DNA from: Flavobacteriales bacterium
Lineage (GTDB): Bacteria; Bacteroidota; Bacteroidia; Flavobacteriales_D; CALLUQ01
Assembly: GCA_963669295.1 (NCBI GenBank)
Contig: OY769938.1
Coordinates: 2,286,394 to 2,350,393 of the forward strand
Direction of reading: 5' to 3'
DNA: 64,000 nucleotides
This document shows positions 5,229 to 49,861 of this stretch, piece after piece. The position numbers were made by a program, and so were the translations under genes. The number at the start of each line of letters is the position of its first letter. The stretch's first letter is position 1. Under the pieces are notes generated by a model. The model made no database searches, was not told the origin of the DNA, and worked only from the letters and a program-made list of their open reading frames with translations.

Positions 5229-6218
5229 ATGGGTAAGCAACGACGCAAGAAAATCCAATGCCTTAATTGTGGGACAAAGTTGAATGAAACGGTCAACTTT
5301 TGTTCTAATTGTGGGCAGGAAAACCACGATAGAAAAGTGCCGCTGAAATTTTTGTTGGGCGACTTTGCACGCGATTACTTTACCTTCGATTCCAAGTTCT
5401 TTCGCAGCATTGTGCCGTTGTTAATTAAACCAGGGTACCTTACTCGCAAATTTAATGAAGGCAAACGCACCGATTACATCCTGCCCATCAGGATGTATAT
5501 CTTCATTAGCATTGTGTACTTTTTTGCATTGTCGCTTGACAGCCGGGAAACCAGTAGCACCAACTCTTCTGATTTAAACATGTTTTCGTTAAGTGCGGGG
5601 GTGCCAGATGTTGGGGCAACTGAAGTTGATACTACTGAAGTAGTGCCCGACACGACGGCTTCCGATCTAAGCTTATCGCTAGATCAGGATGGAAAAGTAA
5701 CAGGAGAAGGCATGGAGCAGATTATAGCACTGGTAGACGAAATTGGGTTTGAAGCGGCCCTCGATTCGATAGGCCTGGAGCAGGGGTCGTTCGACCGATT
5801 CCTGATTGGGCAAATGATAAAAATATCGTTGGGGCAAACCAACATGACTCAAATGTTGCGCAAAAACATTTCTATTATGATGTTTTTTCTCATGCCTTTT
5901 TTTGCGCTGCTGCTCAAATGGATGTTCCGAAAAAATAAACGCTACTACATCGAACACCTCATCTTTGCCTTTCACTTCCATTCATTTGTGTTTTTATTCA
6001 GCACCATCTTCATTCTGTTTAGCCTCTACATCTACGATTTGCCAGGTATTATCTTAGTAGTTGTTGTATTGGGGTACTTGTACATTGCCTTACATAATGT
6101 ATACCAACGCAAAGCATTGGCCACCATCTACAAATACTTGTTGCTTAATATTACCTACCTAATTTCCATTACCCTCGCCATGTTAATTACAGTATTCATT
6201 ACGCTATCGATGGTTTAG
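5229..6218 (+). CDS. zinc-ribbon membrane protein (DUF3667-like), paralog 1
   Basis: N-terminal CLNCGTKLNETVNFCSNCGQEN zinc ribbon, conserved DYFTFDSKFFRS block, several C-terminal TM helices. Confidence 0.65.
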   Translation: MGKQRRKKIQCLNCGTKLNETVNFCSNCGQENHDRKVPLKFLLGDFARDYFTFDSKFFRSIVPLLIKPGYLTRKFNEGKRTDYILPIRMYIFISIVYFFALSLDSRETSSTNSSDLNMFSLSAGVPDVGATEVDTTEVVPDTTASDLSLSLDQDGKVTGEGMEQIIALVDEIGFEAALDSIGLEQGSFDRFLIGQMIKISLGQTNMTQMLRKNISIMMFFLMPFFALLLKWMFRKNKRYYIEHLIFAFHFHSFVFLFSTIFILFSLYIYDLPGIILVVVVLGYLYIALHNVYQRKALATIYKYLLLNITYLISITLAMLITVFITLSMV

Positions 6219-28230: not shown

Positions 28231-28304
28231 GGGCCTATAGCTCAGCTGGTTAGAGCACCTGACTCATAATCAGGGGGTCCCAGGTTCGAGCCCTGGTGGG
28301 CCCA
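28231..28304 (+). tRNA. tRNA-Met (anticodon CAT), elongator-type; tRNA-Ile2(lysidine) not excluded
   Basis: Manual cloverleaf: GGGCCTA-TA-GCTC-AGCTGGTTA-GAGC-A-CCTGA-CTCATAA-TCAGG-GGGTC-CCAGG-TTCGAGC-CCTGG-TGGGCCC-A. 74 nt, no encoded CCA. Confidence 0.9.
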
Positions 28305-28319
28305 CACTTTACAAAAGCA

Positions 28320-28357
28320 AAAGCCTTTAAGTCAGCGACTTAAAGGCTTTTCTTTTT
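28320..28357 (+). terminator. rho-independent terminator after the tRNA
   Basis: 14-bp stem AAAGCCTTTAAGTC / GACTTAAAGGCTTT followed by a T-rich run. Confidence 0.75.
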
Positions 28358-28555: not shown

Positions 28556-28563
28556 TATATTTG
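28556..28563 (+). promoter_or_regulatory. Bacteroidota -7 box (TAnnTTTG)
   Basis: TATATTTG, 20 nt upstream of ATG 28583. Confidence 0.4.
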
Positions 28564-28582: not shown

Positions 28583-28813
28583 ATGAGTAAAACCACTAGA
28601 AGAGAGCGTTTTGAGAAAGTAGCAGCGCGAAGAACACAGAATATTCTTGACTCACTCGATAGTCTTTCTAAGTGTAGTAACAGAAATAACTATGAATATT
28701 CTGAAGAGGACATAAAGAAAATGATAAGAGCGATTAGGGAAAAATTAACACAAACAGAATCAGCGTTTGATAATGAAATAAGTAAGTCAAAAAAAAACCA
28801 ATTTAAGTTTTAG
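28583..28813 (+). CDS. small basic hypothetical protein, partner of the GHKL ATPase
   Basis: 76 aa (MSKTTRRERFEKVAARRTQNIL...). Its stop TAG overlaps the GTG of the next ORF (TAGTG). The upstream part of the tracked ORF is low-complexity and was dropped. Confidence 0.5.
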   Translation: MSKTTRRERFEKVAARRTQNILDSLDSLSKCSNRNNYEYSEEDIKKMIRAIREKLTQTESAFDNEISKSKKNQFKF

Positions 28814-31290
28814 TGCCAATGGACAGTAAAGAGATCTTTTTAAAAATTTTCAATTCCAAAGATGAAATTGAATTGGGAGAGTTTATAGACAGTGAATCAA
28901 CTCTTTTTGATGATGATAATTGGAAACCACTTGGAGAAAATTATAGCAATTATGGTGTAGTTAAGAATCAACAATCTAATCCAATTGCAGCACTAATTGA
29001 AAAGGTGACTAATTCAATTGATGCTATTTTAACAAAACAGTGTTTGGAAAATGGAATAAACCCTAAATCAGATGAGGCTCCAAGATCTATGGAAGATGCT
29101 ATTAATCAATTCTTCCCTGATAATTCAAACTGGGACCTTCAGAGTTTTAGAAAGGCGCAATCAGAGAATATTCAGGTAATTGCAGATGGAAAAGGTCCTC
29201 GTACCCAAAAAAGGCAATATCCAACATCAGTTATTATTTATGATAATGGAGAAGGCCAACATCCAGAAGACTTTGAAAGAACCTTCTTATCGCTACTCCG
29301 TGGAAATAAAAACGACATTCATTTCGTGCAAGGAAAGTATAATATGGGTGGATCTGGCGCTATCGTCTTTTGTGGTAAAAGAAGGTATCAACTTATAGCA
29401 TCAAGGCGATATGATAAAACAGGAGACTTCGGCTATACACTGATTCGAGAACATCCAAAAAAAACAACAGATCAAGCGAAAGAGACTTGGTACGAATACT
29501 GGATTCCTGATGGCATTATTCCTTGTTTTAGCATTGGCACTATGGATCTAGGTCTAAGCAACAAGAAATTTGAAACAGGAACTTTGATCAAACTATACTC
29601 TTATCAATTCCCTAAAGGGTATTCTGGATTTGCACAAGATTTGAATCAAAGTATTAATGAATTTTTATTCTCGCCTGCTCTACCCATATTGACTAAAGAT
29701 ACTGCTGAAAGATATCCAAATAATAAAGTTCTTGAAAATGATCTATTTGGACTAAAAAGAAGATTACAGAAGGAAGAAGATGATTATCTAGATACAAAAT
29801 TCTCTGAAACCTACAATGATGATTTATTTGGAGAAATGAAAGTATCTTGTTTTGTCTTCAAGGTAAAAGTAAAGGAGTTTGACATAAAAAAAACTAGGGA
29901 AGAGATTCAAAGGAGATACTTCAAAAATAACATGAATGTATTGTTCTCAATGAATGGACAAGTTCATGGTTATTATACCTCTGAGTTTATTACTCGTTCT
30001 CTGAAATTAAACTTGCTTAAAAATCACCTTCTTATTCATGTCGATTGTACAAACATGAAATATGAGTTTCGAAAGGAACTATTTATGGCTTCTAGAGATA
30101 GGCTTAAAGATGGCGAAGAGACTCAACTATTAAGACAGTATCTAGCAAAAAAGCTTGGTGCAACTGGTGGTAGATTATCAGAAATTCAAAAATTGAGAAA
30201 GCAGGCCGTTAATGTAGATACTTCTTCAAATACAAGTCAGCTTATCAAAGACTTTACTAAGAATCTTCCGATTAATTCGGATCTAATGAAGTTACTTGGC
30301 GACACATTCAAACTTGATTTAAAAAAAGAGAAAAAAGCAAAGAAGGCAGACCCAAAAAAGCCATCTAAACAAAAAGAAGAAATTCCTTTTCAACCTGAAC
30401 GATTTCCTTCTCAATTCAAAATTAATTCTAAATCAAAAGGAGATACTGAAGTTGCCAAAATCCCCATTAACGGAGAAAAGACAATAAAATTTGACACGGA
30501 TGTTGAGAATGATTATTTCGACAGAACTAGCGAACCTGGAGAACTTAAGATAGGGGTCTTAAATATTAAATCGAATGATGTCACAGGAGGAACTGCTCCT
30601 GGAGAACCAAAAGAGATATCAGACATATTCAATGTAAATAAAAGTAGTCCTAACAAGGGAACTATAAAATTAAGTTTAAATCCAAAGGAGAAGTTAAGTG
30701 TAGGAGATGCTGTTCAGTTAAAAGTATCTCTAACAGCACCTGGAGGTGATTTTGATGAAATCTTTTGGGTCAAAATTACAGACCCTGAAAAAGCCAAGGA
30801 ACCTTCGCCAAAAGTTGAAGACGACAACGAACCATTAGGATTACCAAATATGATATTTGCATATCAGAATAAGGAAGGCAAGGATGAAAACGCTGTTGAT
30901 TGGGAAGCGGTTGGCAATGCTACTAGCCAAGAAATGGACATTAAAACAGTAATGGTCCCAGATGCTTCAGGAGATAATCTTAATGGTATTTATGTTAATA
31001 TGGATAGTGCTGTTCTAAAAAGCTTTCTTTCTAGATATAAGAATCCTAACTCTGAACAAATTCAAATAGCCAATAGAAAGTACTATACCTCCGTCTATTT
31101 CCATACATTGTTTCTCTATACAATCACAAAAAATCGAGGATATGAAATTCAAAGAAAGATGGAGCAAACCGACAAATATGATCATGTAGACATTGCAGAG
31201 TACCTAATGGACTTATTTGATCATTATTACTCAACTTTTATCTTAAATTTTGGTGGCATGGAAGAAATGATGCAGGGTATTGGAGACTAA
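28813..31290 (+). CDS. GHKL (Bergerat-fold) ATPase domain protein, MORC/MutL-like N-terminus, unknown C-terminal region
   Basis: N box EKVTNSIDA (28999-29025), G1 box IIYDNGEGQ, G2 box GKYNMGGSG. Lys-rich linker (KKEKKAKKADPKKPSKQK). 825 aa. Alternative ATG start at 28819. Confidence 0.65.
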   Translation: MPMDSKEIFLKIFNSKDEIELGEFIDSESTLFDDDNWKPLGENYSNYGVVKNQQSNPIAALIEKVTNSIDAILTKQCLENGINPKSDEAPRSMEDAINQFFPDNSNWDLQSFRKAQSENIQVIADGKGPRTQKRQYPTSVIIYDNGEGQHPEDFERTFLSLLRGNKNDIHFVQGKYNMGGSGAIVFCGKRRYQLIASRRYDKTGDFGYTLIREHPKKTTDQAKETWYEYWIPDGIIPCFSIGTMDLGLSNKKFETGTLIKLYSYQFPKGYSGFAQDLNQSINEFLFSPALPILTKDTAERYPNNKVLENDLFGLKRRLQKEEDDYLDTKFSETYNDDLFGEMKVSCFVFKVKVKEFDIKKTREEIQRRYFKNNMNVLFSMNGQVHGYYTSEFITRSLKLNLLKNHLLIHVDCTNMKYEFRKELFMASRDRLKDGEETQLLRQYLAKKLGATGGRLSEIQKLRKQAVNVDTSSNTSQLIKDFTKNLPINSDLMKLLGDTFKLDLKKEKKAKKADPKKPSKQKEEIPFQPERFPSQFKINSKSKGDTEVAKIPINGEKTIKFDTDVENDYFDRTSEPGELKIGVLNIKSNDVTGGTAPGEPKEISDIFNVNKSSPNKGTIKLSLNPKEKLSVGDAVQLKVSLTAPGGDFDEIFWVKITDPEKAKEPSPKVEDDNEPLGLPNMIFAYQNKEGKDENAVDWEAVGNATSQEMDIKTVMVPDASGDNLNGIYVNMDSAVLKSFLSRYKNPNSEQIQIANRKYYTSVYFHTLFLYTITKNRGYEIQRKMEQTDKYDHVDIAEYLMDLFDHYYSTFILNFGGMEEMMQGIGD

Positions 31291-31295
31291 AATGT

Positions 31296-32213
31296 CTATA
31301 TCTTATATACATTTTCTAAATCTTTACGATATGTCTTGATTTTGTCTAATAGGCTTATTGAATTTGCTTCCATATCGAATACATTATTAAAACTGTGGAT
31401 CAAATCAAAAATGCTTTTGTTCTTTCTTTTGTTTTGAGAAAAATAATCTTTGAGCTCATTTATTCCATTAAAGTCGTAATTGTGAAGTTTCGAAATTAAC
31501 ACGTTCAAATTTGTCATAAACGTTTTATTTCTGAGCAGTGATACCGATAGGGTTTCCCTCAGTCCTCTCAACTTCTTTTCCAATACCACCACCTCATGTG
31601 CATACTCTGAAAATAGGTTGCTTAATATACGATCAAGTTGCTTTCTCGTAAAATTATCATCTATTCTATAGAGTAGAACGAGCAAATCGGCAGTATCTTC
31701 TATGTGTCCAATTTGTTGGTGTAGATAAAATGAGGAGAATTGCTCCTTAGCTGGATAATCATCTGTATGAAAATAAAGTTTGGTTGGAACAAATCCGTTG
31801 GGATGATTTTTAGACAATTTATATCGACTCAAAAACAGCGATAATGCAGCCGAATAAAACTCCCCATTGCTTTTTGAATAGCCAGATAACTTTTGAACTG
31901 TTCTAAAAAAATCTTCACCAAATTCATATTGAATTTCGCTATCAAGTTTTTGATTACTCCTAAAAACATTCAGTACCTTATCGATTTCTTCTTTCCTCTC
32001 TCTGACCTGAGAATTATCATTCCCCTTTTTCGTACCATACTTATCAATTCTATCATACACATTAGCACATACTTCATTAAATACTTTCTGACATAAATAG
32101 AAATCAATATTCTTAAGTTTTTTAATCAGGAAATCGTCCTCATCAATATGAATTAAATTGATGACCGAACATGCATCTAAGACACAAGTTATTTGATTCA
32201 ATCCTCCTTCCAT
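31296..32213 (-). CDS. PIN-like nuclease domain protein (putative), last gene of the Ssp-like operon
   Basis: Acidic PIN-type positions read by eye: CVLDACSVINL (D13), VFNEV (E47), NGEFYSAALSL (E118), FHTDDYPA (D151/152). Its start overlaps the upstream ATPase gene by 16 nt. Confidence 0.4.
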   Translation of the reverse strand: MEGGLNQITCVLDACSVINLIHIDEDDFLIKKLKNIDFYLCQKVFNEVCANVYDRIDKYGTKKGNDNSQVRERKEEIDKVLNVFRSNQKLDSEIQYEFGEDFFRTVQKLSGYSKSNGEFYSAALSLFLSRYKLSKNHPNGFVPTKLYFHTDDYPAKEQFSSFYLHQQIGHIEDTADLLVLLYRIDDNFTRKQLDRILSNLFSEYAHEVVVLEKKLRGLRETLSVSLLRNKTFMTNLNVLISKLHNYDFNGINELKDYFSQNKRKNKSIFDLIHSFNNVFDMEANSISLLDKIKTYRKDLENVYKI

Positions 32214-33316
32214 CCAATTATTTCATCTTTATTATCTTCAAAAAATTCAATTTTAATTGGAGCATCAATCTCATCTAAATCAGCTAATTCTAATAGAAGT
32301 GAAAATGCCTCATTAAAAGAACGAAGGGAAGCATTACCTTTTTCTTCAATTACCTTATCAACCAATTTTTCATCAAAAGGAAAGTATTCATTTCCATCAT
32401 TCCCTTCTCGGTATGACTTGAGTAAATCCACTAAATACAGTTTAAATTGTTCTTCTGTCGGCAAATCAAATTCAATACGTTCTTTTATTCTTGATTTAAC
32501 GGCTTCAGTAAGATATTCCCCCAAATCCTCAAGACCAAATAAGGCAGTTTGAGTTAAGTTTAAAAACATTAATAAGTTATTTGGAGTATTATCTAATATT
32601 TCCCTCAAAAAATTATTTGTTTTATCAATGTTAGAACTACTTAATATAGCTAAATCTTCAAACTCATCAAACCAAATTATTACGGTTGAAAACACCTTTT
32701 TTTCAAATGTCAAGCATGTGAATATTCCTGCTAGAAGTTTTGTATAATCACTATCTGAATTTAATTGTCTTAGAATTCCATATTCATTCAAATCCTTTAA
32801 TTCTGTATTTGTAATATTTCCATACAAATACTTCTTTAATAATGAGATATCGCTCACATTTTCATCAAATATTGCCTTTAACACACTTGTTATTTGCATA
32901 TTATCGCTGATGTCCTCAATAAATGGTAGTACTTGGACATTAGCTTCTTTAAAAGATGAACGTATCTCCTCTATGTTTAACTTATCGATAACAGCAGTAT
33001 AGATGTTATACACAGGGTCCTTTCCTTTAGGTAGAGTTATTACCATTGAGTACGGTAATGATGAATCTAAACTATCTGAAAGGGATTTCAATTCAGATTG
33101 TTTATTGAAAAACCGTGCTGCATGTGTTTTTCCACTTCCATACTCTCCCCAATTTAATACTAAGCTAGAATTTGGGATTCGAATACTTCTCTTGATTCTC
33201 TTCTCGAACTTTTCTTTTGTTTCTGAAAATCCAGCCCAAACTAAATCTTCTGAACTAGTAGCTGGTGTTATTCTGAAAGGGTTCGTTTTTAACTTATACT
33301 TTTCTTTGAAACTCAT
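32198..33316 (-). CDS. AAA+/ORC-Cdc6-style P-loop ATPase (uncharacterised)
   Basis: Walker A GEYGSGKT, Walker B VIIWFDEFEDL. ATGA start/stop overlap with the upstream gene at 33313-33316. Confidence 0.6.
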   Translation of the reverse strand: MSFKEKYKLKTNPFRITPATSSEDLVWAGFSETKEKFEKRIKRSIRIPNSSLVLNWGEYGSGKTHAARFFNKQSELKSLSDSLDSSLPYSMVITLPKGKDPVYNIYTAVIDKLNIEEIRSSFKEANVQVLPFIEDISDNMQITSVLKAIFDENVSDISLLKKYLYGNITNTELKDLNEYGILRQLNSDSDYTKLLAGIFTCLTFEKKVFSTVIIWFDEFEDLAILSSSNIDKTNNFLREILDNTPNNLLMFLNLTQTALFGLEDLGEYLTEAVKSRIKERIEFDLPTEEQFKLYLVDLLKSYREGNDGNEYFPFDEKLVDKVIEEKGNASLRSFNEAFSLLLELADLDEIDAPIKIEFFEDNKDEIIGWKED

Positions 33317-34986
33317 TTTAATATTTTTTGAATGTACCCATCCCCATACTGTTTTTGAAACTTGTATATGAATAAATCTTGTTCTTTACTTTTTAGATAA
33401 TTTACTATGAATTGATGCCCTACTTTTATGTTGTGAGTTAAGTACAATTTGTACTTGGCATATGTAATCGCTTGAGACGCAGTAACTCGATTTGGTGCTA
33501 AGGTCTTAAAGTATTTAAAACTGTCCATGAGACATGAAATCGTATTAGACACAACTTCATTTTTAGATATTTCTGTCTTTTCACCATTATAAATATCATC
33601 ATACATATGTACCATGAAACGGTTTAAAAAATCATTTGGTGACACTACTCTGGACCAATTGATGTCATTCCAATAACAGATATGACTGAATAATTTCACC
33701 CCTTTATTAGAAAGCTTCAAATTCAATCTTAAATCAATTTCAATTAACTCTAAATCATACAGCCAGTTAAGTCGAGGCATAAGAACGTGTTCTAGATATA
33801 CCTCTGGATTCTTCCAGTTTTGAATTCTATCTATGATTCTCTTCAATTCTTTATATTCTGCACTGTTCTTCTCAAACCAAAATAAATCGCTTAATTGTTT
33901 TAGTCTTTTTAATAGTAATTGCTGAAATGATTTTAGAAGTATTTGAAAGCTAGATTTCCTATTGAGTTTTAAATGCTCCAGGATAATAGAAGTATATAAG
34001 AAATCTTCTCTTAAGATTGTTTCAAGAAAAAACAGCTTGTCCAGTTTTGCTAAAGCAAAAGCATTTTCCGACTTAACTCCTAACTCTTTATTTAATGCAC
34101 CAAATACCTTAAAAAGTTTCCCAGAAGAATAAACATTGTTTAAAAGATTCAGAAACCCAAGGTCTTTGGCTACCTCAATATATGGCGCAGCAGAAGTACC
34201 ATTCTTTGTTACCTTAATTAGTCCTTTGTCGTTCTTATACTGACCTAGTTGAGTTCTATATTCCTCAACAAATCTTTCAAACTTTTTATTAATAAAATTA
34301 GAGGGTACTTTTTCCTGTTCTTGTAGAAACTTGAGAAGGAGTTTGAAGTATCCAAGTCTTCGAACTTTTGTGTTTGTGTTGAGAATGGACAATCTTCGAT
34401 TATCAGGAATTTTCTCGTAATTTTTGTAGAATACCCAATAAAACTCCGGAGGAGTATAACTATCATTAGCGAACCTTAATTTATCAATAACTTCATTGTA
34501 GAAATTTGAATTTGAAATGTAAGAATCAGCTATATGTATCTCGAAAATATAGTTTGGTTCAGTATCACAAAACGCTGCGGCATCAAAATCTTCGTTATAT
34601 CCTTCATTTTGAGATACAAAATATTCTTTGACCGAATCTTGATCTATTTCTTGTATAATTTGAATTGCTTCATACATTTTATTACATATAGAAAATGGTT
34701 CCGAATAATCAATTATATCATTTCTATAGCCTAAGTATTCGCTAGAGCCTATATATGAAGCAGACGGTTCAAGTCTAGAAAACTCTTCAAGTTCTTTTTC
34801 TGAAAGACTTCTATAAAAGAGGTCTTCTTCTATTTGTTCTGAAGTCCCCGAAGGAAGATCAAATACTATTTCATACTCGGTAAAATCAAATAGTAACCTA
34901 TCATTCCGTAGAAGTGAAGTATCATTAGAAAACTGATTCAATATTTTATAAACCTCAATCATTTCTATACAAAACATGTAATACAA
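33313..34986 (-). CDS. hypothetical protein (about 550 aa, no recognisable motif)
   Basis: Long uninterrupted ORF. Candidate starts are TTG 34986, ATG 34977 or ATG 34962, all within or 2 nt from the SspD-like stop at 34965. Confidence 0.6.
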   Translation of the reverse strand: MYYMFCIEMIEVYKILNQFSNDTSLLRNDRLLFDFTEYEIVFDLPSGTSEQIEEDLFYRSLSEKELEEFSRLEPSASYIGSSEYLGYRNDIIDYSEPFSICNKMYEAIQIIQEIDQDSVKEYFVSQNEGYNEDFDAAAFCDTEPNYIFEIHIADSYISNSNFYNEVIDKLRFANDSYTPPEFYWVFYKNYEKIPDNRRLSILNTNTKVRRLGYFKLLLKFLQEQEKVPSNFINKKFERFVEEYRTQLGQYKNDKGLIKVTKNGTSAAPYIEVAKDLGFLNLLNNVYSSGKLFKVFGALNKELGVKSENAFALAKLDKLFFLETILREDFLYTSIILEHLKLNRKSSFQILLKSFQQLLLKRLKQLSDLFWFEKNSAEYKELKRIIDRIQNWKNPEVYLEHVLMPRLNWLYDLELIEIDLRLNLKLSNKGVKLFSHICYWNDINWSRVVSPNDFLNRFMVHMYDDIYNGEKTEISKNEVVSNTISCLMDSFKYFKTLAPNRVTASQAITYAKYKLYLTHNIKVGHQFIVNYLKSKEQDLFIYKFQKQYGDGYIQKILK

Positions 34987-36101
34987 CCTTCTTCTGTATC
35001 ATCTAAAATATCCAAAAGGAATTTTGAGCCTTTCGACTTTTCACGTCCTTTTCTATTCAAGTGCTCACGTTTAATAGATTCAATACGACTAGCCTCTTTT
35101 AACTCTTCAAGTGATTCATATTGGTTCCAAGTAAATGTCTCGTCAATATTCTCATAGTGCATCGCCTGTTCATACAAATCAGGGTGTTGTTCATACAACC
35201 ACACCCATTCAATTTTTTGCTGAAAAAAACAGAAGAAACAACCTGATCTGCTTCTTGCATACTCTCCTTTTTGCCCATCAACTTCATACTCTATTTTATT
35301 GTAGTATGCAGGAACTCCTACTCCACTTTCTTCAAGAATTCGAAAAATATCATCTCGCACTAGAATGTCTTCATTTTCAAGTAATGGAAAACTGTCTTCT
35401 ATAGACAAAGCATAATTGGTAGTCTTCAGAAAATCATAAATCACTCTATTCATTCCACTTATGGAAATATCAAGACAAGTATCGATTTTCTTATGTAGAT
35501 TCTTCTGTGCAACAATTCTTTCATTGAAATTAGTTGATACTTCAATGTCGAGCGCCTTTTTGAACTTATCAAGACTTTCTATTCCTTGTATGGTTTGAAA
35601 TAAATCTAATGCTTTTGATTGATTATCAGAATGAAAAAACTTCGTCCAAACATCCTCACTCCAAATGTTTCTTCGAAAAGGAAAAATTGATTGTATGTTC
35701 TCCTTTTTAGAAACATATCCTTCCCTACTTTCATCACCTCTAATACCCACATATGACACCGTAGGAGCTGTTCCAACATATTTTTCAAATGGCTGTAACT
35801 TCATCATGTTTGTACACCATCTAGCTTGAGGAGAAGGAAGGTAGCCTTTGAATATTTTATAGAAATAATCAAATGGGTTTTCCGAGCTTTTTTCAGCTTC
35901 TTCAGCAATAAGACGCTTTATCTTTTTCCCGAGATAAGACTCCAAATTGTCAATCAATTGATAAGTTTCATCAAGCTCTTTTCCAGTATCACAACAATAG
36001 TAGTCGAACTCTATTTGTGGATATTTATCTCGCAAATAAATTGCCAATGCTGCACTATCCTTTCCTCCTGATATTCCTAATACATGTCGGGCTTTACTCA
36101 T
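34965..36101 (-). CDS. PAPS reductase/PP-loop ATP pyrophosphatase family protein (SspD/DndC-like)
   Basis: PP-loop GISGGKDSAA, ARWCTNMMKLQP, C-terminal SRSGCFFCFFQ cysteine motif. 8-nt overlap with the upstream ATPase gene. Confidence 0.75.
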   Translation of the reverse strand: MSKARHVLGISGGKDSAALAIYLRDKYPQIEFDYYCCDTGKELDETYQLIDNLESYLGKKIKRLIAEEAEKSSENPFDYFYKIFKGYLPSPQARWCTNMMKLQPFEKYVGTAPTVSYVGIRGDESREGYVSKKENIQSIFPFRRNIWSEDVWTKFFHSDNQSKALDLFQTIQGIESLDKFKKALDIEVSTNFNERIVAQKNLHKKIDTCLDISISGMNRVIYDFLKTTNYALSIEDSFPLLENEDILVRDDIFRILEESGVGVPAYYNKIEYEVDGQKGEYARSRSGCFFCFFQQKIEWVWLYEQHPDLYEQAMHYENIDETFTWNQYESLEELKEASRIESIKREHLNRKGREKSKGSKFLLDILDDTEEGCITCFV

Positions 36102-39100
36102 TTTCTAATTCTCTTTTTAACAACTTGGCAAGTGCCATAATTTTCACACTCTTGTCTTTAGTTAACTCTTTGTCAAGTGCAGCAATTGCTTTATCAAGTT
36201 CTTTCTTTTTTGATTTATTCATTTTAACAACGACTCCCTTCATTCCAGAATCTCTTGTTGTAATGTCGAGCTTAAACGCTTCGTCATCATCATTTGTCAC
36301 CTCATCAATTTCAAGAAGGTTATCCAATTCTTTGAACATGTGTAATAGTTGGTCTTTGAGTACCTCTTCTTCTTGATCTTGAATATCAACCAATCGTTTT
36401 TTAAGAATTGCATGAGCGATTGATTCAATCCAACTGTTTCTATCATTTATAGGTGAATTCAACCTTAATAAGAAAGTTTTTTGATACTGCACCAATTTGT
36501 GTTCTTTAATTCCTTTGTACCTTTCTTGTAGAACAGATTTGTACTTTGAAAATCCTAGACTCTCATCAAGTATCTCGTCTACTATAAATTTTTCTATACG
36601 ATTCAATAATTCTGGGTACGCTCCTCTTATTTCAGTTATAGTTTCCTGAAACCTAATGATGTACTGCTCATAAGAGTCTTGTGATGTTGAAACGTCAATA
36701 CTTCTGAATTTAAGAGCCTCAGGAAAATCTTCAAAAAACACTTTTTCTGGATCTTCAGATTTAGCAATTGCAGTTCTTAGGTTTATTGCTTCACTAGAGA
36801 TTCTCTTTGTAATCTTCGAATATTGTGGGAGATTCTTATAGAGAGATATTATAGGTCCGATACATTCGATAAAAGACTTTACAGTCATTTTATCTTGCGA
36901 TTCAAGGTTTAATAATTCCCGATATTTATTAAACAATTTTATTCTAGCATCAGAAAGTTCAAAGGACTTGATTTCATACTCCTTTGGTGATCGAGATATT
37001 AAATGTAGTCTTGTCGCATCAATTTTTGGAATGAAGCCTTCATCCCCATATAACGCATAATCGCCCCGTTTAATAAAAAGAAACAAAGGCACCCAAAAGT
37101 CGACCAACCCTTTCTTTAATTTATAAGGCTTAGTTTCTAGTACCTTATATAACTCTGTGAGACTCTTTCTTTCCTCCCTACATTCCGATAAAAACCTTTC
37201 AGAAGCGTCCCATATTTCCCAAATAGGTGATTGTTGAGTTGGTGCACCTAACTCATATTTCCCTTTTATCTTATTATGGAGTCCAGTTTCCTTTAACAGA
37301 GAAATGTATATAGTTTTTTCTGCTGGAAATTTAGACTCAGGGAAATCTAAATCCTGTTTACTCCAATTATCCGAAACGGCTGAAAACAAATTCTTTCTTG
37401 CCGTGTGAATCGCAGTCGAAATTTTGTGCTTATTGAATAATTCATTTCTCAGTTTTGGAGTACCTGAATACACTTCTTCACATATTAATGATAGTTGTTG
37501 GTTTAATTTTCGAGAGGAATCGATTTGAAGAATTTTACCTCTCCAAACCCAAGATACTTTGTCCGCAAATAAAGCATCCTTGACGTAGTGATTCAGTAAA
37601 GATTTATGACTTTCTATTATGTTTTTAAGCTCTTTTCTAGCAACTAAATCATCATCATCTATATTTTGAAGTACTCTACTTGACTTTTCAATTTCAAACA
37701 AGGAATTTTTAATGTCACCAGCATTTTTGAAAAGACAGTAAATAATCGCTTCATCATGATTATTCGAAAATTCTTTTAACTTCTTTTCTGAAAGATCTTC
37801 ATTAAATACTAGGTTAATAAATCCATCAATCTCATCAACAGGGATATCTTGAGTTGGGTTTCGTGTTATCTTATATTCAAATAGTCTTGGTGTTCCAGTC
37901 TTATAGGAAAATGCTTTCGCCGTCAATATTGAGAATTCAAACGAATCTCTAAGTTTTGCAACAATATCAATATCATTCTCAACTTGGTTCTCAGCTTTTA
38001 ATAATGCTCCTTCTATGTCCAAATCAGTTCCTTCGAATAGCTTGTAAGAATCACTGAATTTATTGAAGCGGACTATTTGCAGCCTTGATAATTCGGATAT
38101 TACGCCTTTAGTATCACTCGATTGAGAGTTTCTTGTTATCTCCAGATATTCTTCGAGTAGACCATTGTCAATTATTGCTCCCTTATTAGCGAAAAGAGAT
38201 AGTAGTCCTACTGATTTAACAATAGAAAGGGCAAGTGATTGATTTTCCTCTATTCTGGCCTCAACCCTTTCAATTGAGGATCTAATACTTGCCCACTGAA
38301 TATAGTCTGGGTTATTGCGAGAAGACAGAAATGGATAGAAGTCCGCCCATAAATAGTCATAGACTTTGTCAATGCTGAAATAACTTTCAGTTTTACTATT
38401 CTCTCCAAATTTAGATAAAAATGAGAAGAGGGAACGTTCATTTTGACCATACCTCTGAAGAGATGCGGTGAGTATGAATGCAGATATTGGATCCAAGGGG
38501 TATAATCCATTAGAAATTCCTTCAAAGAATGTCTCACTAACCTTGAATAGCTTGTTGTTCTCAACTAATTTACCAATAGCATGACTACCATCCATTATCT
38601 GTACACCTAAATCCTCTGCTTGAAGTTTTTCAGATGCCAAGTACAATAACTGTTCTATTGGTTCGTTAAACGGCAACTCTTTAAATCGACCCTTTATTTT
38701 TCTCCATTCATTTCTCTCAATCTCACTTAAGTTAGAACCGTATGTATCGAAAGCTTGATGCAGGGTAGTAATAAAAAGTATATTTCGATTTGGGGAATTA
38801 ACAAACTCTGCCAATTGTTGAATAAAATAAAGCTCCCTTTCTGGATTATTCTTGACGGCATACTCAAGGAATTTCCCCATTTCATCAATCTGAATCACCA
38901 ACATTCCATTTTCCTCCCCTACTTCTTCATATTGTTGGTATATGGCATCAAAAAGTTCTTGATTACCTGAATGGGAACTTGAAACATTTAACACCTCGTG
39001 AAAATGCCCAATCATTGATTCATATACACCAACGATATTTATGAACTTTACATTCTCAACCTTATCGGGCAATGTCAAATCAAAGAGCTTTCTCTTATTA

Positions 39101-39300
39101 AGAATTGACTGCTCTATTGCCCATAGAAAAGAAGACTTACCTGTACCGTAAGAACCTATCAAATTGAATGAGTGAATCCCTTTCTTAAACTCATTAAAAA
39201 TGGTATAAATTGATTTCTGAGCATTGGGTGTTACAATATATTCTAACTGAGAATCTTCATCTCTTATAATGTTAACCGAAGGAGTATATCTATTTGCCAT
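36094..39300 (-). CDS. giant P-loop ATPase (SspC-like / BrxC-style)
   Basis: 1068 aa. Walker A GSYGTGKS (39133-39156), Walker B MLVIQIDEMGKF. 11-nt overlap with the upstream DUF4007-like gene. Confidence 0.6.
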   Translation of the reverse strand: MANRYTPSVNIIRDEDSQLEYIVTPNAQKSIYTIFNEFKKGIHSFNLIGSYGTGKSSFLWAIEQSILNKRKLFDLTLPDKVENVKFINIVGVYESMIGHFHEVLNVSSSHSGNQELFDAIYQQYEEVGEENGMLVIQIDEMGKFLEYAVKNNPERELYFIQQLAEFVNSPNRNILFITTLHQAFDTYGSNLSEIERNEWRKIKGRFKELPFNEPIEQLLYLASEKLQAEDLGVQIMDGSHAIGKLVENNKLFKVSETFFEGISNGLYPLDPISAFILTASLQRYGQNERSLFSFLSKFGENSKTESYFSIDKVYDYLWADFYPFLSSRNNPDYIQWASIRSSIERVEARIEENQSLALSIVKSVGLLSLFANKGAIIDNGLLEEYLEITRNSQSSDTKGVISELSRLQIVRFNKFSDSYKLFEGTDLDIEGALLKAENQVENDIDIVAKLRDSFEFSILTAKAFSYKTGTPRLFEYKITRNPTQDIPVDEIDGFINLVFNEDLSEKKLKEFSNNHDEAIIYCLFKNAGDIKNSLFEIEKSSRVLQNIDDDDLVARKELKNIIESHKSLLNHYVKDALFADKVSWVWRGKILQIDSSRKLNQQLSLICEEVYSGTPKLRNELFNKHKISTAIHTARKNLFSAVSDNWSKQDLDFPESKFPAEKTIYISLLKETGLHNKIKGKYELGAPTQQSPIWEIWDASERFLSECREERKSLTELYKVLETKPYKLKKGLVDFWVPLFLFIKRGDYALYGDEGFIPKIDATRLHLISRSPKEYEIKSFELSDARIKLFNKYRELLNLESQDKMTVKSFIECIGPIISLYKNLPQYSKITKRISSEAINLRTAIAKSEDPEKVFFEDFPEALKFRSIDVSTSQDSYEQYIIRFQETITEIRGAYPELLNRIEKFIVDEILDESLGFSKYKSVLQERYKGIKEHKLVQYQKTFLLRLNSPINDRNSWIESIAHAILKKRLVDIQDQEEEVLKDQLLHMFKELDNLLEIDEVTNDDDEAFKLDITTRDSGMKGVVVKMNKSKKKELDKAIAALDKELTKDKSVKIMALAKLLKRELENE

Positions 39301-40162
39301 AATACTTTTCTAAAACGTTAAACTTATTCGGTTTCCCATCCTTAAATTGAAGTTCTTTCACACCTGCATCATTTTTATAGACTATACCCTCAAACTCTTT
39401 TTCTATTTCTTGTAGAATCGATTCAAGGTTATCTTTATCAAAACAAAATACATTACCTGTACTTTCATGTGATTCAAACAAAGAACTAAAACTTATCGAA
39501 TCACCATAATCTTCATTATCAAGGATGGAATAAAGAACGATTTCCTTAGGTATCGATAACTGATTTCTATTCTCAATTCTATAAATGCTATTCTTAAGCT
39601 CATCTTTTCTAGCTAGTTCATGTAATAATCCAAGTTCTGTAAGCAACCCCGAATAACTTTCCTCAATATCTTTAGATGGTTTAGAAAAATACGTCCTAAC
39701 AAAAACAGAAAAATCTTTTTCTAACGTGTTTTCGTTTGCATTACCATCTTTTTCTAATGCTAAGGACTTAAAATGAAGCTTTGTGAATTCAGGTTTTAGC
39801 TTTCTCAGTTCTCCAAAAATGAGGTGATAAATTGATGCTCTCGATTTTGACTTTACGAGCGAGTAATGAAGTAACCATAAAGTTCCTTCGTCTTCCATAT
39901 ATGGATCATATCCATTATCCTGAAATATACTTGTTGCTAACTCACTGACTTGATCATAATCATCAAATAACCCAAATGCTCTCAGCCAATATCGAATTGA
40001 CCCAACCATATTTCTTCCAACGCCTAGCTTCATAACCGCCGAATCATTGAAACTAGCTTCTGATTCATTCGCATAATCAAAGCCTTTTTTTAACCAAAAA
40101 CTTCGACAGTGAAATGTCTCATGCCCAGAAAAATTGTAATTAACCTCGTTTCTCATCAACAT
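39290..40162 (-). CDS. DUF4007-like protein (SspB-like)
   Basis: 290 aa. The N-terminal FSGHETFHCRSFWLKKGFDY is, as I recall it, the DUF4007 signature. Its genomic partnership with PAPS reductase and a large ATPase fits that family. Confidence 0.55.
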   Translation of the reverse strand: MLMRNEVNYNFSGHETFHCRSFWLKKGFDYANESEASFNDSAVMKLGVGRNMVGSIRYWLRAFGLFDDYDQVSELATSIFQDNGYDPYMEDEGTLWLLHYSLVKSKSRASIYHLIFGELRKLKPEFTKLHFKSLALEKDGNANENTLEKDFSVFVRTYFSKPSKDIEESYSGLLTELGLLHELARKDELKNSIYRIENRNQLSIPKEIVLYSILDNEDYGDSISFSSLFESHESTGNVFCFDKDNLESILQEIEKEFEGIVYKNDAGVKELQFKDGKPNKFNVLEKYYGK

Positions 40163-40358
40163 TCATTTTAATACTAGAAACTATTAATTCTCTAACATCT
40201 ACATCAAGATGTTTAGCGATTTCATAGAGCAATTCTATCTTAGGCTGACACTTATTAGTACAATAGTTTGTCACCATCACAGTGCTCTTTCCAATCTGCT
40301 GCGCCAACCATTTTTGAGAACGCCCTTGTTCCTTTAATACTTCCTTAATTCTATTCAT
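40140..40358 (-). CDS. XRE-family helix-turn-helix transcriptional regulator
   Basis: QKWLAQQIGKSTVMVTNYCTNKCQPKIELLYEIAKHL is HTH_3-like. ATG 40358 preferred over GTG 40364. Overlaps the next gene by 23 nt. Confidence 0.8.
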   Translation of the reverse strand: MNRIKEVLKEQGRSQKWLAQQIGKSTVMVTNYCTNKCQPKIELLYEIAKHLDVDVRELIVSSIKMNVDEKRG

Positions 40359-40372
40359 AGTCACCTACTTGT

Positions 40373-44711: not shown

Positions 44712-46226
44712 CTACTTTTTTGGTTTTACTTTAATGTCTTTAGTAGAGGTCAACTTGCCATAAGTGTAAACTTCCTTCTTATATTTTATACCATCTTCAT
44801 TATAGTGAATCCAAACCCCATTCATTTCATAAACTTTGTTTTTGCCAAAAGGATCATTTGGCGTAGGACCTGCCATTGGGTTTATCGCATAATTACTAGT
44901 CATTTTTAAATTGCCATTTTCATGATAGTCCTTCCATTGACCTGATTTCTGACCATTAGTTACCGATCCTTCTGACATTTTGTTACCATTTGGATAATAA
45001 TAAATACAAGGCCCATCAAGAGTTTCAGGATCAAGTGAAATCATCTTACCTTCAAATTGTAATTGTCCGTTAGAATAATAGTCTCTAACTGATTCATTTG
45101 AAATGCTTCCAGTTTGAGTAAATGTTATTACTCGATAGAATGAAGCTTCTCTTTTTGAATCTACCTCTTCCCAGTTTTCGTTATAATAGATCGTCCATTT
45201 TCCAACTCTGTACCCATTACTATATTTTAGATCACCATTCTTACTGCCATCTTCATTGTACGAAACCCAAATACCATCTCTATCTCCACGCTGATTCAAG
45301 CCACCTTCCAGAGACTTATTACCATTTTCATAATAAGAAATCATTGTACCTGAATACTGGCGACTACTACCTCCAGCTCTCCGATTTGATAATACCTCTG
45401 AATACTGCATTCTCGGGTTCCCATTTGGATAAAAAAGTGTTGTTTGAACATTCTGCTTCCCATTTGATATAGCTTCATACACTATTTTCTTTTCCATGTT
45501 GCCAAGACTGTCGTAATATACTTGCTCGCCTTCCATGATTTCTCCATACATATCACCTTTGGCGAAATTTTCTAAACTTTTTACCTTCCCATCAGCGTAC
45601 CAGATTGTCTTCTTGCCAAACCATTTTCCATTTTCCATTAAACCTTCTGCTAGCTTTGCCCCATCAGGGTACCATTCATTTATATCTCCATGATAAACTC
45701 CCTCTAGCATATTAAATTCTATCTTCTTTTGACCATTATCATACCAAGCTGTATTCTTACCTGTTATAGGATGTGCGGCCTCAATTTTAACTCCTTCAAG
45801 GTTGTACTTTTCATAATATGTCTTCTCGCCATTCTCATATTTCTCCATCAAAATCATTATTCTTTTACCTTCTTTACAACCATACTCATACCAAGTTCCT
45901 GATGGATTTCCTTTAGAATAGTTCTTTACTGAATAGGGAAGCTTTGCGCACTCACTGTCATCCTTCATTCCAATCCAAAACTCTTGTTTTCCATTAGCAA
46001 AACTGTTGCTAAATGTTGCTTTGGTTATCATCTTTCCATTTGAATCGAACTTCTTATAAGAACCATTCTTTTGTCCCTTTGAATTAACGAAATAGATTTC
46101 TTTGATTTTTGATTGTACTAATGGGTCGTAATATGTTCTTACTTCCTTTTGAGCCAATGCAAATGAAGCAGATAAAACGAAAAGAGAAACAGCGATAAAT
46201 GATTTCATAATTAATGAGTTTTTCAA
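44712..46226 (-). CDS. MORN-repeat-variant (YwqK family) secreted protein
   Basis: Signal peptide. More than 10 repeats of the W(Y/K)xxYxxNGxxxxEGxxxNGxxxG type (for example EWYPDGAKLAEGLMENGKWFGKKTIWYADGKVKS). Confidence 0.7.
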   Translation of the reverse strand: MKNSLIMKSFIAVSLFVLSASFALAQKEVRTYYDPLVQSKIKEIYFVNSKGQKNGSYKKFDSNGKMITKATFSNSFANGKQEFWIGMKDDSECAKLPYSVKNYSKGNPSGTWYEYGCKEGKRIMILMEKYENGEKTYYEKYNLEGVKIEAAHPITGKNTAWYDNGQKKIEFNMLEGVYHGDINEWYPDGAKLAEGLMENGKWFGKKTIWYADGKVKSLENFAKGDMYGEIMEGEQVYYDSLGNMEKKIVYEAISNGKQNVQTTLFYPNGNPRMQYSEVLSNRRAGGSSRQYSGTMISYYENGNKSLEGGLNQRGDRDGIWVSYNEDGSKNGDLKYSNGYRVGKWTIYYNENWEEVDSKREASFYRVITFTQTGSISNESVRDYYSNGQLQFEGKMISLDPETLDGPCIYYYPNGNKMSEGSVTNGQKSGQWKDYHENGNLKMTSNYAINPMAGPTPNDPFGKNKVYEMNGVWIHYNEDGIKYKKEVYTYGKLTSTKDIKVKPKK

Positions 46227-47958: not shown

Positions 47959-48177
47959 CTATTTACCTCTTTTGGTAGGCTTTTTTCTTAGATTAGGATA
48001 AGGGACTATTTTCTTTTTATCCTCACAGACTTCTTCAATGATTTTATGATTCAGTTTAACCAGTAGTTCGTTCTGTTCCTTTAGCAGTCTATTCTGCTCA
48101 CCAAGACTATCTAGATTAGCCAATTGTATCAAAATCACCTCTTCCATTTCTTCCTTGGTATATCTTAACTTACCCAT
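47959..48177 (-). CDS. small coiled-coil hypothetical protein
   Basis: 72 aa. 1-nt overlap with the upstream HTH gene. Confidence 0.45.
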   Translation of the reverse strand: MGKLRYTKEEMEEVILIQLANLDSLGEQNRLLKEQNELLVKLNHKIIEEVCEDKKKIVPYPNLRKKPTKRGK

Positions 48178-48629
48178 TATGCGGCTTGAACTTTAAACTT
48201 TCTTTTTGATGAGGTGATAAAATCATTTAAATCGACTTCTGATATACGTGTTTTCTTTTCTGACAATCTACTAGCCCTTAACTTACCTTCATTGATGTAG
48301 TTGTTCACGGTCATTCTTGATACGCCAAGAATATCAGCTACCTCAACAGGTGTAAATAACTTATTTGGATCAGGTTCATTTCCATTTGGATTCAAAGAGG
48401 GTTGAACATCCTCTTCCAAGTTGAGCTTATCTAAAAACTGTAGTTTGTATTCGGCCAATCCATTTAAAAAGGACCTTTGAAACTGTTTGACTGCTTTGTG
48501 CATATTTATATAGTCTCTCTTCTCATTCAATGAGCTAGCCAGAATAGAAAATGCCATATCTTCTACCTCAGCAGAGCATACGTGACCCTCAGCAATTCGT
48601 GTAAAGTATTTCTTAAATAGTTCTTCCAT
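48177..48629 (-). CDS. helix-turn-helix (excisionase/MerR-like HTH_17) DNA-binding protein
   Basis: C-terminal FTPVEVADILGVSRMTVNNYINEGKLRASRL. Lies directly downstream of the integrase. Confidence 0.65.
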   Translation of the reverse strand: MEELFKKYFTRIAEGHVCSAEVEDMAFSILASSLNEKRDYINMHKAVKQFQRSFLNGLAEYKLQFLDKLNLEEDVQPSLNPNGNEPDPNKLFTPVEVADILGVSRMTVNNYINEGKLRASRLSEKKTRISEVDLNDFITSSKRKFKVQAA

Positions 48630-48634
48630 AACTT

Positions 48635-49861
48635 TTATTTTATCTCCAATCGGTCAACAAAATCAAAGGTCTTATCTCCAAACTTTTGCATATAATTCAA
48701 AAGCATACTGATTGAAGAATGACCAGTCATTTTCATTATCTCATTGATTGGAACATTTTGTTTAATGCAATTTGTAATAAATGTTCTTCGGGCATTGTGG
48801 CTGGATATCTGTGTCCATTTCTGGACCATTTGATATTCCATCTCGTTATACCTTCTTCTTTTAATCTTAATCTCCTTTTGAAACTCTTTAATTGAGAGCA
48901 ACATTTGCTTTAAGTAGAGATTGTATTTCTGCAATATGAAATGGTTAAGGCTTTCATTATTGCGTTCCCAAATCTTCATTGCTGTAGAATTCAACGGAAC
49001 TTCAAAATAACCGCCAGTTTTTATGGCATATTTACAAATGATATTTCCCTTTATATGGCTTGAATCTAGGGTTCGGATATCGCTATACCTCAACCCTGTC
49101 ATACATCCAAAAACGAAAACATCTTTAACCTTTCTTTCTCTTGCCGTTCTTGGCTTGAAATCCAAAACAGCTTTTAATTCCACTTCATTAAGTACAATGA
49201 TGTCCGTTTCGTATTTGCTCACTTTATAAGAATCTAAGTCTTTGTTCTCATTGGCTAAATCACGTTCAACAAGATTCTTCCAGAACTCTTTTAAATGCTT
49301 ATATCGTTTGCTTATTGTGTTGTCATTTAAGTTACCCTCTGTCAAACAACCGTATGGTCTTTCTTGACTTAAGAAGTACTCAAACTCTTGCAGGAAATTT
49401 CGATTAATATCCTTTAATCTCAATTGAATATTGTTGAGGTTTTCATAATCTTTAAAAGCATTCATCATACTGCGATATGCTTTCAAAGAGCCTGGTTTAA
49501 TCTTGCTCGACTTCTTCATTTCATAGAATTCTTCCATAAAATCCATCAAAGCAAAATGATCCCGATTAATCTCGGAATTCACTTTTTTGGTTTCATCTTT
49601 AAACCTATGCTTAACCAATTCAACAGATGGAGTAATTCCATCAGCTTTTAGCTTTAGAATGATATTATCAATTCTCTGCTGAATTTGAATAATATTACTA
49701 TTGATTTCGTCATAGTTTCTGATTCCGCTAGACTTCAATATCAACTTTGATTCTGAGAAATGCTTTGCATCAACTCTGAATCCAGTATTGTGTCTTAGCA
49801 CTCCATTTTTGGAGTAATATATAACTATGGTTCCTCTATATAATTTTACTTTGGTTAACAT
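48635..49861 (-). CDS. tyrosine-type site-specific recombinase/integrase
   Basis: Box I is GCMTGLRYSDI (Arg). Box II is SSHNARRTF (HxxR)...TGHSSISMLLNY (His, Tyr). Bacteroidota-type N-terminal arm/SAM-like region. Confidence 0.88.
   Translation of the reverse strand: MLTKVKLYRGTIVIYYSKNGVLRHNTGFRVDAKHFSESKLILKSSGIRNYDEINSNIIQIQQRIDNIILKLKADGITPSVELVKHRFKDETKKVNSEINRDHFALMDFMEEFYEMKKSSKIKPGSLKAYRSMMNAFKDYENLNNIQLRLKDINRNFLQEFEYFLSQERPYGCLTEGNLNDNTISKRYKHLKEFWKNLVERDLANENKDLDSYKVSKYETDIIVLNEVELKAVLDFKPRTARERKVKDVFVFGCMTGLRYSDIRTLDSSHIKGNIICKYAIKTGGYFEVPLNSTAMKIWERNNESLNHFILQKYNLYLKQMLLSIKEFQKEIKIKRRRYNEMEYQMVQKWTQISSHNARRTFITNCIKQNVPINEIMKMTGHSSISMLLNYMQKFGDKTFDFVDRLEIK

Follow-up and report, generated by a model that had tools for sequence, protein, structure and literature searches.

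Why should a large, divergent GHKL-type ATPase be encoded tail to tail with the genes of a DNA phosphorothioation (PT) system, and what could such a protein contribute to immunity? The question is raised by a stretch of 64,000 nucleotides from a Flavobacteriales bacterium (assembly GCA_963669295.1, contig OY769938.1, positions 2,286,394–2,350,393; hereafter the window), in which a GHKL gene at 28819–31290 of the forward strand, recognised by its motifs, an AlphaFold2 (AF2) model and Foldseek matches, converges on an sspBCD operon. An original prediction made from the letters of this DNA had read the gene, together with a small basic protein (sm) encoded just upstream, as either an independent two-gene defence unit or an additional component of the PT system. 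In the clade to which the window's gene belongs, the GHKL gene is shown here to be an obligate neighbour of SspBCD, and from these neighbourhoods its product looks like an undescribed core partner of the SspBCD phosphorothioation immune system. That it is the conserved non-modifying, restriction-side partner of Bacteroidota/Alphaproteobacteria-type SspBCD, working as an ATP-driven DNA clamp, is a reading to which we give about an even chance.

Linkage of the GHKL gene to SspBCD

Loci were collected by pattern-seeded scans, taking one genome per species and at most 80 loci per scan, and clades were assigned by clustering the 116 usable GHKL-family members from 120 loci. The one-genome-per-species scan returned 22 loci, or 23 counting the window, and clustering of their open reading frames (ORFs) placed SspD, SspC and SspB next to the GHKL gene in 19 of the 23. 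Among the 116 clustered members, partner and clade match almost perfectly: for the window's clade, which spans Flavobacteriales, Cytophagales and Alphaproteobacteria, taken with its alphaproteobacterial sister, Ssp genes are present in 21 of 23 loci and in 21 of 21 informative ones, the two Ssp-less loci of the window's clade being contigs that end ∼1 kb (L004) and ∼0.3 kb (L008) after the GHKL gene. SspBCD loci were surveyed independently of the GHKL gene on plasmids. A GHKL homologue at 57% identity on a Hymenobacter plasmid, annotated independently, is Ssp-linked too, and Devosia and Ensifer plasmids whose GHKL proteins share 45% identity carry a full sspABCD alongside. Across 17 loci, pairwise identity of the GHKL protein is correlated with that of SspB, SspC and SspD (r = 0.81–0.83), with mean pairwise identity highest for the GHKL protein (68%), followed by SspD (64%), SspC (49%) and SspB (47%).

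Between the GHKL gene and sspD lies a cassette whose content differs by locus, the GHKL and ssp flanks remaining constant. Several loci encode a DUF262 (NsnA-like) protein with a Ser/Thr kinase, and several others a 174-aa protein with a DndB-like protein; single loci carry DUF262 with a RiboL-PSP HEPN protein, the PDC-M62 pair (Septu-like ATPase and HNH), or a nucleoside-deoxyribosyltransferase-like pair, and the Hymenobacter plasmid carries DUF262 with SIR2. On the Devosia (L118, 12533–17035) and Ensifer (L119, 5327–9702) plasmids, a 635–680-aa protein is paired with a 776–786-aa fusion of an N-terminal HATPase_c_3 domain of MORC type and a C-terminal histidine-kinase HATPase_c domain (HEF_HK). 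Three unassigned genes fill the position in the window, and the same trio recurs in L001 and L014. In seven loci the cassette is on the GHKL strand at gaps of −11 to +53 nt (≤21 nt in six of the seven), whereas elsewhere it follows sspD on the ssp strand, and it is thus common to both transcription units.

Two further loci bear on whether the gene belongs to the Ssp system or merely to the island that carries it. In L010, the GHKL start lies 10 nt past the end of a co-directional gene for an SspA-like cysteine desulfurase. The plasmid of Hymenobacter sp. GOD-10R (L120, 7797–20731) has an equally close SspBCD and no member of the window's GHKL family; after its SspBCD genes come those for a 176-aa protein, an SFII helicase, a 600-aa canonical HATPase_c_3 (MORC-like) protein and a PLD nuclease. 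This helicase–GHKL–PLD operon reads in the same direction as sspD and takes the place of the cassette directly 3′ of it; a GmrSD/SspE-like gene further on is convergent. The correlated divergence, the shared cassette, the SspA–GHKL pair of L010 and the alternative GHKL module of L120 together indicate that the GHKL gene is tied to the Ssp system and not merely to the island. Separately, a homologue of ∼72–74% identity in a Pseudotenacibaculum species (L019, 10001–12464) is frameshifted near residue 412–430; Ssp genes are absent within 10 kb of this locus, a single anecdote and the only case of a frameshifted GHKL gene, and the homologue may be a decaying remnant.

Sequence and predicted structure of the GHKL protein

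The large ORF was first taken to encode 825 aa from a GTG at 28813, whose G is shared with the TAG stop (28811–28813) of the small ORF. That overlap is present in the sequence; the GTG is the less likely start. An ATG at 28819 follows the small-ORF stop after 5 nt, and the same arrangement, a stop, 5 nt and ATG GAY, is seen in L012 and L017, the closest loci with the small ORF, so that the gene is assigned to 28819–31290 and its product is probably an 823-aa protein, the numbering used below. In the distant loci L027 and L029, the GHKL ATG directly follows or overlaps the small ORF, and with either choice of start the two genes are tightly coupled.

All three Bergerat-fold boxes originally picked out (EKVTNSIDA, IIYDNGEGQ and GKYNMGGSG) are found in the large ORF, and motifs I (ExxxNxxD), II (DxGxG), III (GxxGxG) and IV (T) occur in that order. 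In an alignment of 127 sequences at 26–81% identity, E61, N65 and D68 of motif I, which includes the catalytic Glu and the Mg-binding Asn, are invariant, as are D142, G144, G146, the ATP-lid glycines G172, G177 and G180, and T207; this invariance of catalytic residues speaks for ATPase activity. With more than 2,600 full-length matches in 90% clusters, and 2,013 hits among 50% cluster representatives (E ≤ 1e-3), the 823-codon ORF is far beyond chance. Members are mostly 750–850 aa, all annotated as hypothetical, and spread patchily over Bacteroidota, Proteobacteria, Firmicutes, the candidate phyla radiation (CPR) and archaea. An origin in phages was considered and discarded, as 50,697 phage genomes yielded no match and 2.9 million viral contigs yielded 13.

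Profile searches leave the family almost unnamed. The window protein scores 20.8 bits against HATPase_c_3 (PF13589), below the Pfam cut-off of 25; precomputed Pfam matches exist for none of the 120 closest homologues and for about a quarter of one sister clade (HATPase_c_3), and hhalign against canonical HATPase_c_3 neighbours aligned the motifs alone, at a probability of 5–11%. NCBIfam and PADLOC (E ≤ 0.01) made no assignment of the window protein, PADLOC v2 returned no match for five distant members, and PDB sequence searches with the single protein, a 98-sequence profile and a C-terminal profile gave nothing useful.

Structure prediction was more informative. The AF2 model used was built from the 127-sequence alignment (pLDDT 81.2, pTM 0.75), an earlier one from 28 close homologues (pLDDT 58) having been dropped. 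Foldseek against the PDB placed first the Methanosarcina mazei Topo VI-B subunit (9o0g; E 4e-10, ∼810 columns), with further matches to ParE/GyrB 43K (topoisomerase IV) ATPase modules, the SMCHD1 ATPase module and TRAP1/Hsp90, the whole set lying at E 4e-10 to 3e-5 and bearing out the GHKL fold first proposed from motifs. Alignments to the two-domain modules of ParE 43K, SMCHD1 and TRAP1 (N and M domains) span 430–490 columns, an extent suggesting that the GHKL domain is immediately followed by a transducer (S5-fold) domain. On this model the protein is placed as a highly divergent GHKL and transducer ATPase of the Topo VI-B/MORC/GyrB structural class. Beyond the ATPase module, the model predicts helices at 433–497, the expected Lys-rich linker at about 499–521, predicted to be disordered, an immunoglobulin (Ig)-like domain at residues ∼530–655 supported by Foldseek matches, a second short disordered linker that is G/K/R-rich in most members of the family, and a C-terminal alpha/beta domain at 677–822. 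The last ∼300 residues were originally left unassigned, and neither Pfam nor PDB sequences match them; among 32 C-terminal regions of the family, Pfam produced scattered chance matches only. With an ATP gate at the N-terminus, then charged linkers and a globular domain at the C-terminus, the protein would, by analogy, have the usual layout of a dimeric GHKL DNA clamp. Among viral structures (BFVD), phage rIIA (‘membrane integrity protector’) is one of the best matches of the GHKL and transducer module, beside phage topoisomerase subunits.

Similarity to Hsp90/TRAP1 and to topoisomerase ATPase modules could also be expected of an ordinary cellular GHKL protein, be it a chaperone, a sensor kinase or a topoisomerase subunit, that had come to lie in the island by chance. 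Such an origin is highly improbable, given that the GHKL protein has no HisKA or HSP90 match, no Toprim, no Top6A partner and no NCBIfam name, that its phyletic spread is patchy, that the low-GC island encoding it adjoins a tRNA and has an integrase, and that its neighbours are consistently modification or defence genes. No HATPase_c match was found in the window protein either, and its GHKL domain is N-terminal, a configuration that does not correspond to a sensor histidine kinase. With a GHKL fold present, defence contexts recurring and nothing to mark the homologues as housekeeping kinases or Hsp90-type proteins, the grounds on which the original prediction could have been abandoned were not encountered.

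The small upstream protein, sister clades and the window's island

The predicted 76-aa basic protein is encoded by an ORF at 28583–28813 of the forward strand, with a helical, basic translation (pI 9.7, 18 K+R versus 12 D+E). A hidden Markov model from five copies found an sm homologue directly 5′ of the GHKL gene in 31 of 105 loci with enough upstream sequence, and at no other position in 117 loci, which marks sm as a real gene and a family-specific partner; its carriers include Flavobacteriales, Patescibacteria, Hydrogenedentes and many metagenomic lineages. It is an optional partner of the family, present in three of the 21 Ssp-linked loci; a universal role was rejected on its absence from the other 18. 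Pfam and NCBIfam gave no assignment for sm, and PADLOC a weak LeoC match (E 1e-3). From their arrangement, sm and the GHKL gene appear to be co-transcribed and are probably translationally coupled. A candidate −7 promoter element, TATATTTG, read from the sequence at 28556–28563 (+), 20 nt 5′ of the small ORF, fits what we take to be the Bacteroidota −7 consensus, TAnnTTTG, and is presumably the promoter of the small ORF; TACATTTG stands 5′ of the GHKL gene in L001, L014, L020 and L021, all four without the small ORF.

Homologues of sm also occur on 13 plasmids that are without the window's GHKL family. On three (L134, 5992–8071; L135, 5983–8089; L136, 6001–8154) the homologue lies just 5′ of genes for 615–629-aa hypothetical proteins in which Bergerat-like strings are visible by eye, with no tool match; another lies at 5968–6198 of L137, and neighbours of the plasmid copies include Dcm with MutH/Sau3AI, Dcm with Vsr, and a UvrD-type helicase. 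The small protein could be an adaptor or a controller-like regulator, and is read here as an optional accessory of the window's GHKL protein and possibly of other GHKL proteins.

Beyond the window's clade, the same GHKL family keeps other company. In what is termed here the MTase clade, a ∼400-aa type II-like N6/N4 methyltransferase (MTase) stands beside the GHKL gene in 28 of 30 loci, the other two being short contigs, and is convergent to it in 25 of 27 (median gap ∼7 nt); no recognisable nuclease or other restriction candidate was seen in these loci. The sm position is often held there by HARE-HTH or winged-helix proteins, and a relationship of sm to these alternative upstream proteins was considered and dropped, as they were found to be unrelated. 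In metagenome loci L066–L114 (for example L076, 6480–10800, and L112, 1730–5385), the MTase-clade unit is a compact one of three genes: an upstream DNA-binding protein (HARE-HTH, winged-helix, 225-aa type or small ORF), the GHKL protein and the convergent 400-aa MTase. Clade 7, with 42 loci, is more heterogeneous, the GHKL gene having the small ORF as its sole companion in 18, a neighbouring type I restriction-modification (R-M) system in nine and no identified partner in 15. Some contexts of the family are generic defence islands (Dcm with MutH, HEPN-MNT, GIY-YIG). On the chromosome of Changchengzhania lutea (L115, 6131–16321), a defence cluster by phage-like genes is arranged as Dcm MTase, MutH-like and 239-aa proteins, then the small ORF and the GHKL protein (800 aa), then a Metallophos protein (491 aa) and a second HATPase_c_3 protein (774 aa).

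These contexts invite a second explanation, that sm and the GHKL protein form an autonomous two-gene defence or abortive-infection module that accumulates beside modification systems and works independently of SspBCD. The pair is found alone among housekeeping genes in Patescibacteria and Hydrogenedentes, sm is kept across phyla and always directly 5′ of the GHKL gene, and the sm-only and partnerless loci of clade 7, like the defence islands just described, would suit such a module. We nevertheless think it rather unlikely: Ssp linkage holds in every informative locus of the window's clade though sm is present in just three of them, all 28 informative loci of the MTase clade are likewise linked, GHKL divergence correlates with that of SspB, SspC and SspD, and the cassette genes are co-operonic, depending on the locus, with either the GHKL gene or sspD. 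Of the two possibilities first put forward for the locus, each therefore finds support somewhere in the family, the two-gene unit in the isolated pairs of Patescibacteria and Hydrogenedentes and the PT component in the invariable SspBCD linkage of the window's clade.

In the window itself, a tRNA-Met gene (28231–28305, +; ARAGORN) bounds on its left the low-GC island in which the system lies, and a bidirectional terminator-like hairpin with a 15-bp stem (28319–28351, both strands) separates the tRNA/housekeeping flank from it. GC content is 0.29–0.36 in the island from ∼28 kb on, against 0.40–0.44 outside, over ∼21.5 kb (28231–49861); at the far end, Pfam identifies an HTH_17 excisionase-like gene and a tyrosine integrase (48177–49861, −). 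Starting right after the tRNA and hairpin and ending near an integrase, this stretch looks like an integrated genomic island; a flanking att-site direct repeat was sought for it and none was found. A 504-aa MORN-repeat protein is encoded within it at 44712–46226 (−), amid unassigned ORFs.

The predicted convergent junction is as described, the GHKL stop ending at 31290 and a 305-aa ORF occupying 31296–32213, with a gap of 5 nt; the label ‘PIN-like’ given to the latter found no support, its sole match being a weak, sub-threshold one to CdiI_2. This ORF belongs to the window's cassette (31296–34986, −), which encodes proteins of 557, 372 (AAA+, weakly BrxD-like) and 305 aa; the three have weak or no matches, and none that is informative, in Pfam, PADLOC or the PDB, and the trio may be an undescribed PT-dependent effector module. 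Next on the same strand are sspD, for a PAPS-reductase-like protein (34965–36101; PADLOC SspD E 1e-91, Pfam PAPS_reduct), sspC, for a BrxC-like ATPase (36094–39300; PADLOC SspC 1288 bits, full length), and sspB (39290–40162; PADLOC SspB E 1e-95, Pfam DUF4007 E 3e-73). The sspB start is overlapped by a gene for a 74-aa XRE-type helix-turn-helix (HTH) protein (40140–40364, −; Pfam HTH_3 E 1e-9), likely an operon regulator, and one that may be of controller type; an HTH regulator is also found 5′ of the sspBCD operon in L120, ∼0.9 kb before sspB.

Possible function and relation to known systems

In the mechanism proposed, SspBCD would write the PT self-mark, the exchangeable cassette would act as sensor and effector (usually a DUF262/DndB-type protein plus a kinase, HEPN, SIR2 or HNH module), and the GHKL protein would be the constant restriction-side engine. 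Binding of ATP would dimerise its N-terminal gates while the C-terminal domain holds the dimer together, with the K/R-rich disordered linkers and the Ig-like domain lining a DNA-binding chamber; the protein would then clamp or scan DNA and couple its modification status to the cassette effectors. DNA clamping, a restriction-side role and PT dependence are proposed here by analogy, and the strongest argument for the restriction side is the MTase clade, in which no other restriction candidate is visible.

DndB regulates the Dnd system, and a comparable place on the modification side can be envisaged for the GHKL protein, as a factor that loads, targets or throttles SspBCD (or the MTase) while restriction resides wholly in the cassette. 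Its conservation, higher than that of SspB, SspC or SspD, would fit this, as would cassettes that already hold plausible sensors and effectors; the strongest case for such a role, or for a regulatory one, is made by the SspA–GHKL operon of L010 together with the absence of a nuclease domain. This explanation is also judged rather unlikely, since type II-like MTases and the characterised SspABCD systems modify DNA without any such factor (PMC8092258, PMC12914056), the GHKL gene is convergent to the ssp operon and not inside it, and it shares an operon with effector cassettes in seven loci; the MTase clade, again, offers no other gene for restriction.

Several points weigh against the restriction-side clamp. 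The stand-alone sm and GHKL loci imply that an adjacent modification module is not strictly needed by the family. Type I R-M loci are insertion hot spots, and the association of GHKL genes with them may for that reason be mere co-localisation. The scans that supplied the loci were a biased sampling, correlated divergence can stem from co-transfer instead of physical interaction, and the operon of L010 suits a modification-side role equally well. No nuclease motif was seen in the GHKL protein, and neither a nuclease nor a PT-binding domain was recognisable in it by Pfam or PDB sequence searches.

The closest published concept is that of MORC and paraMORC1–5, GHKL and S5 ATPases of R-M systems (Iyer, Abhiman and Aravind 2008, PMC2292703), for which a role in DNA looping or clamping was proposed (PMC2292703). 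The window's family resembles them in its N-terminal GHKL domain with intact ATP motifs, S5-type transducer and family-specific C-terminal extension (PMC2292703), in a sporadic, laterally mobile distribution across bacteria and archaea, and in neighbourhoods with modification or R-M genes, here SspBCD, a type II-like MTase or type I R-M according to clade. It differs in that the window protein falls below the HATPase_c_3 cut-off and has no SFII helicase partner, in that the RecB, TIR and HxH C-terminal domains of paraMORC3, 4 and 5 (compared by description) are not seen in it, and in that its partner is a phosphorothioation module, ‘Dnd’ and ‘phosphorothio’ having no occurrences in PMC2292703.

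With SspABCD–SspE and SspABCD–SspFGH the locus shares the SspB/C/D module and the general plan of a modification operon with an adjacent non-modifying partner, and DUF262, which in SspE is the sensor domain, is frequent in the cassettes of its relatives. Unlike SspE (DUF262 and DUF1524), the GHKL protein has neither domain and no PADLOC match at E ≤ 0.01; SspF has a Walker A motif and SspH an FtsK-like C-terminus (PMC8092258), neither of which the GHKL protein has, SspF, SspG and SspH being compared here by their published descriptions. Topo VI-B of M. mazei is the best structural match, yet at ∼13% identity and a TM-score of 0.27 normalised to the query, and the window's gene lies in a defence island instead of an operon for a housekeeping topoisomerase. 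A Topo VI-like holoenzyme was considered and set aside, as there is no conserved Top6A/Spo11-like neighbour. MutL resembles the family in that a long linker and a C-terminal domain accompany its GHKL and transducer ATPase, and in being associated with epigenetic marks of strand or self. Unlike MutL, however, the family has no DNA_mis_repair or MutL_C Pfam match and no DQHA(X)2E(X)4E motif and is not vertically inherited, and no MutL match was found for the window protein by Pfam, NCBIfam or PDB sequence; while the GHKL half of the label ‘MORC/MutL-like GHKL ATPase’ holds good, ‘MutL-like’ is thus too specific, as a MutL C-terminal or endonuclease motif is lacking. In the literature on SspBCD, phosphorothioation, MORC and anti-phage GHKL proteins, no account of the family or of an association between GHKL proteins and SspBCD was found, and a GHKL partner likewise goes unmentioned in recent comparative-genomics work on Dnd, BREX and Menshen. 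We rate the family as part of a PT-based, R-M-like system, of which it would be the GHKL core component.

A broader and more speculative reading, doubtful at present, would have one conserved ATP-driven clamp plugged, by clade, into SspBCD, a solo type II-like MTase or type I R-M, as an undescribed class of modification-coupled immunity in which restriction is possibly non-nucleolytic or proceeds via new C-terminal catalysis. With no recognisable nuclease in systems composed of an MTase, the GHKL protein and a small DNA-binding protein, restriction there may take the form of MORC/SMCHD1-like entrapment or silencing of unmarked DNA, or may depend on a new C-terminal catalytic domain.

Some 84% of sspBCD loci have been reported without a known partner (PMC8092258). 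If the restriction-side reading is true, some of these orphan loci, in marine Flavobacteriia, Cytophagales and Rhizobiales, would be accounted for by a conserved GHKL partner joined to an exchangeable effector cassette, and GHKL, cassette and SspBCD would together form a concrete, testable architecture. The cassette position would serve as a site of discovery, in which the window's trio, the nucleoside deoxyribosyltransferase-like pair and the MORC-histidine-kinase fusion are uncharacterised. The pairing of the same GHKL family with a solo methyltransferase in a sister clade would amount to a natural experiment, a ‘reader/engine’ re-wired between self-marks on the backbone (PT) and on the base (methyl), and would strengthen the connection between GHKL clamps of prokaryotes and the view that eukaryotic MORC and SMCHD1 compact DNA in response to epigenetic marks.

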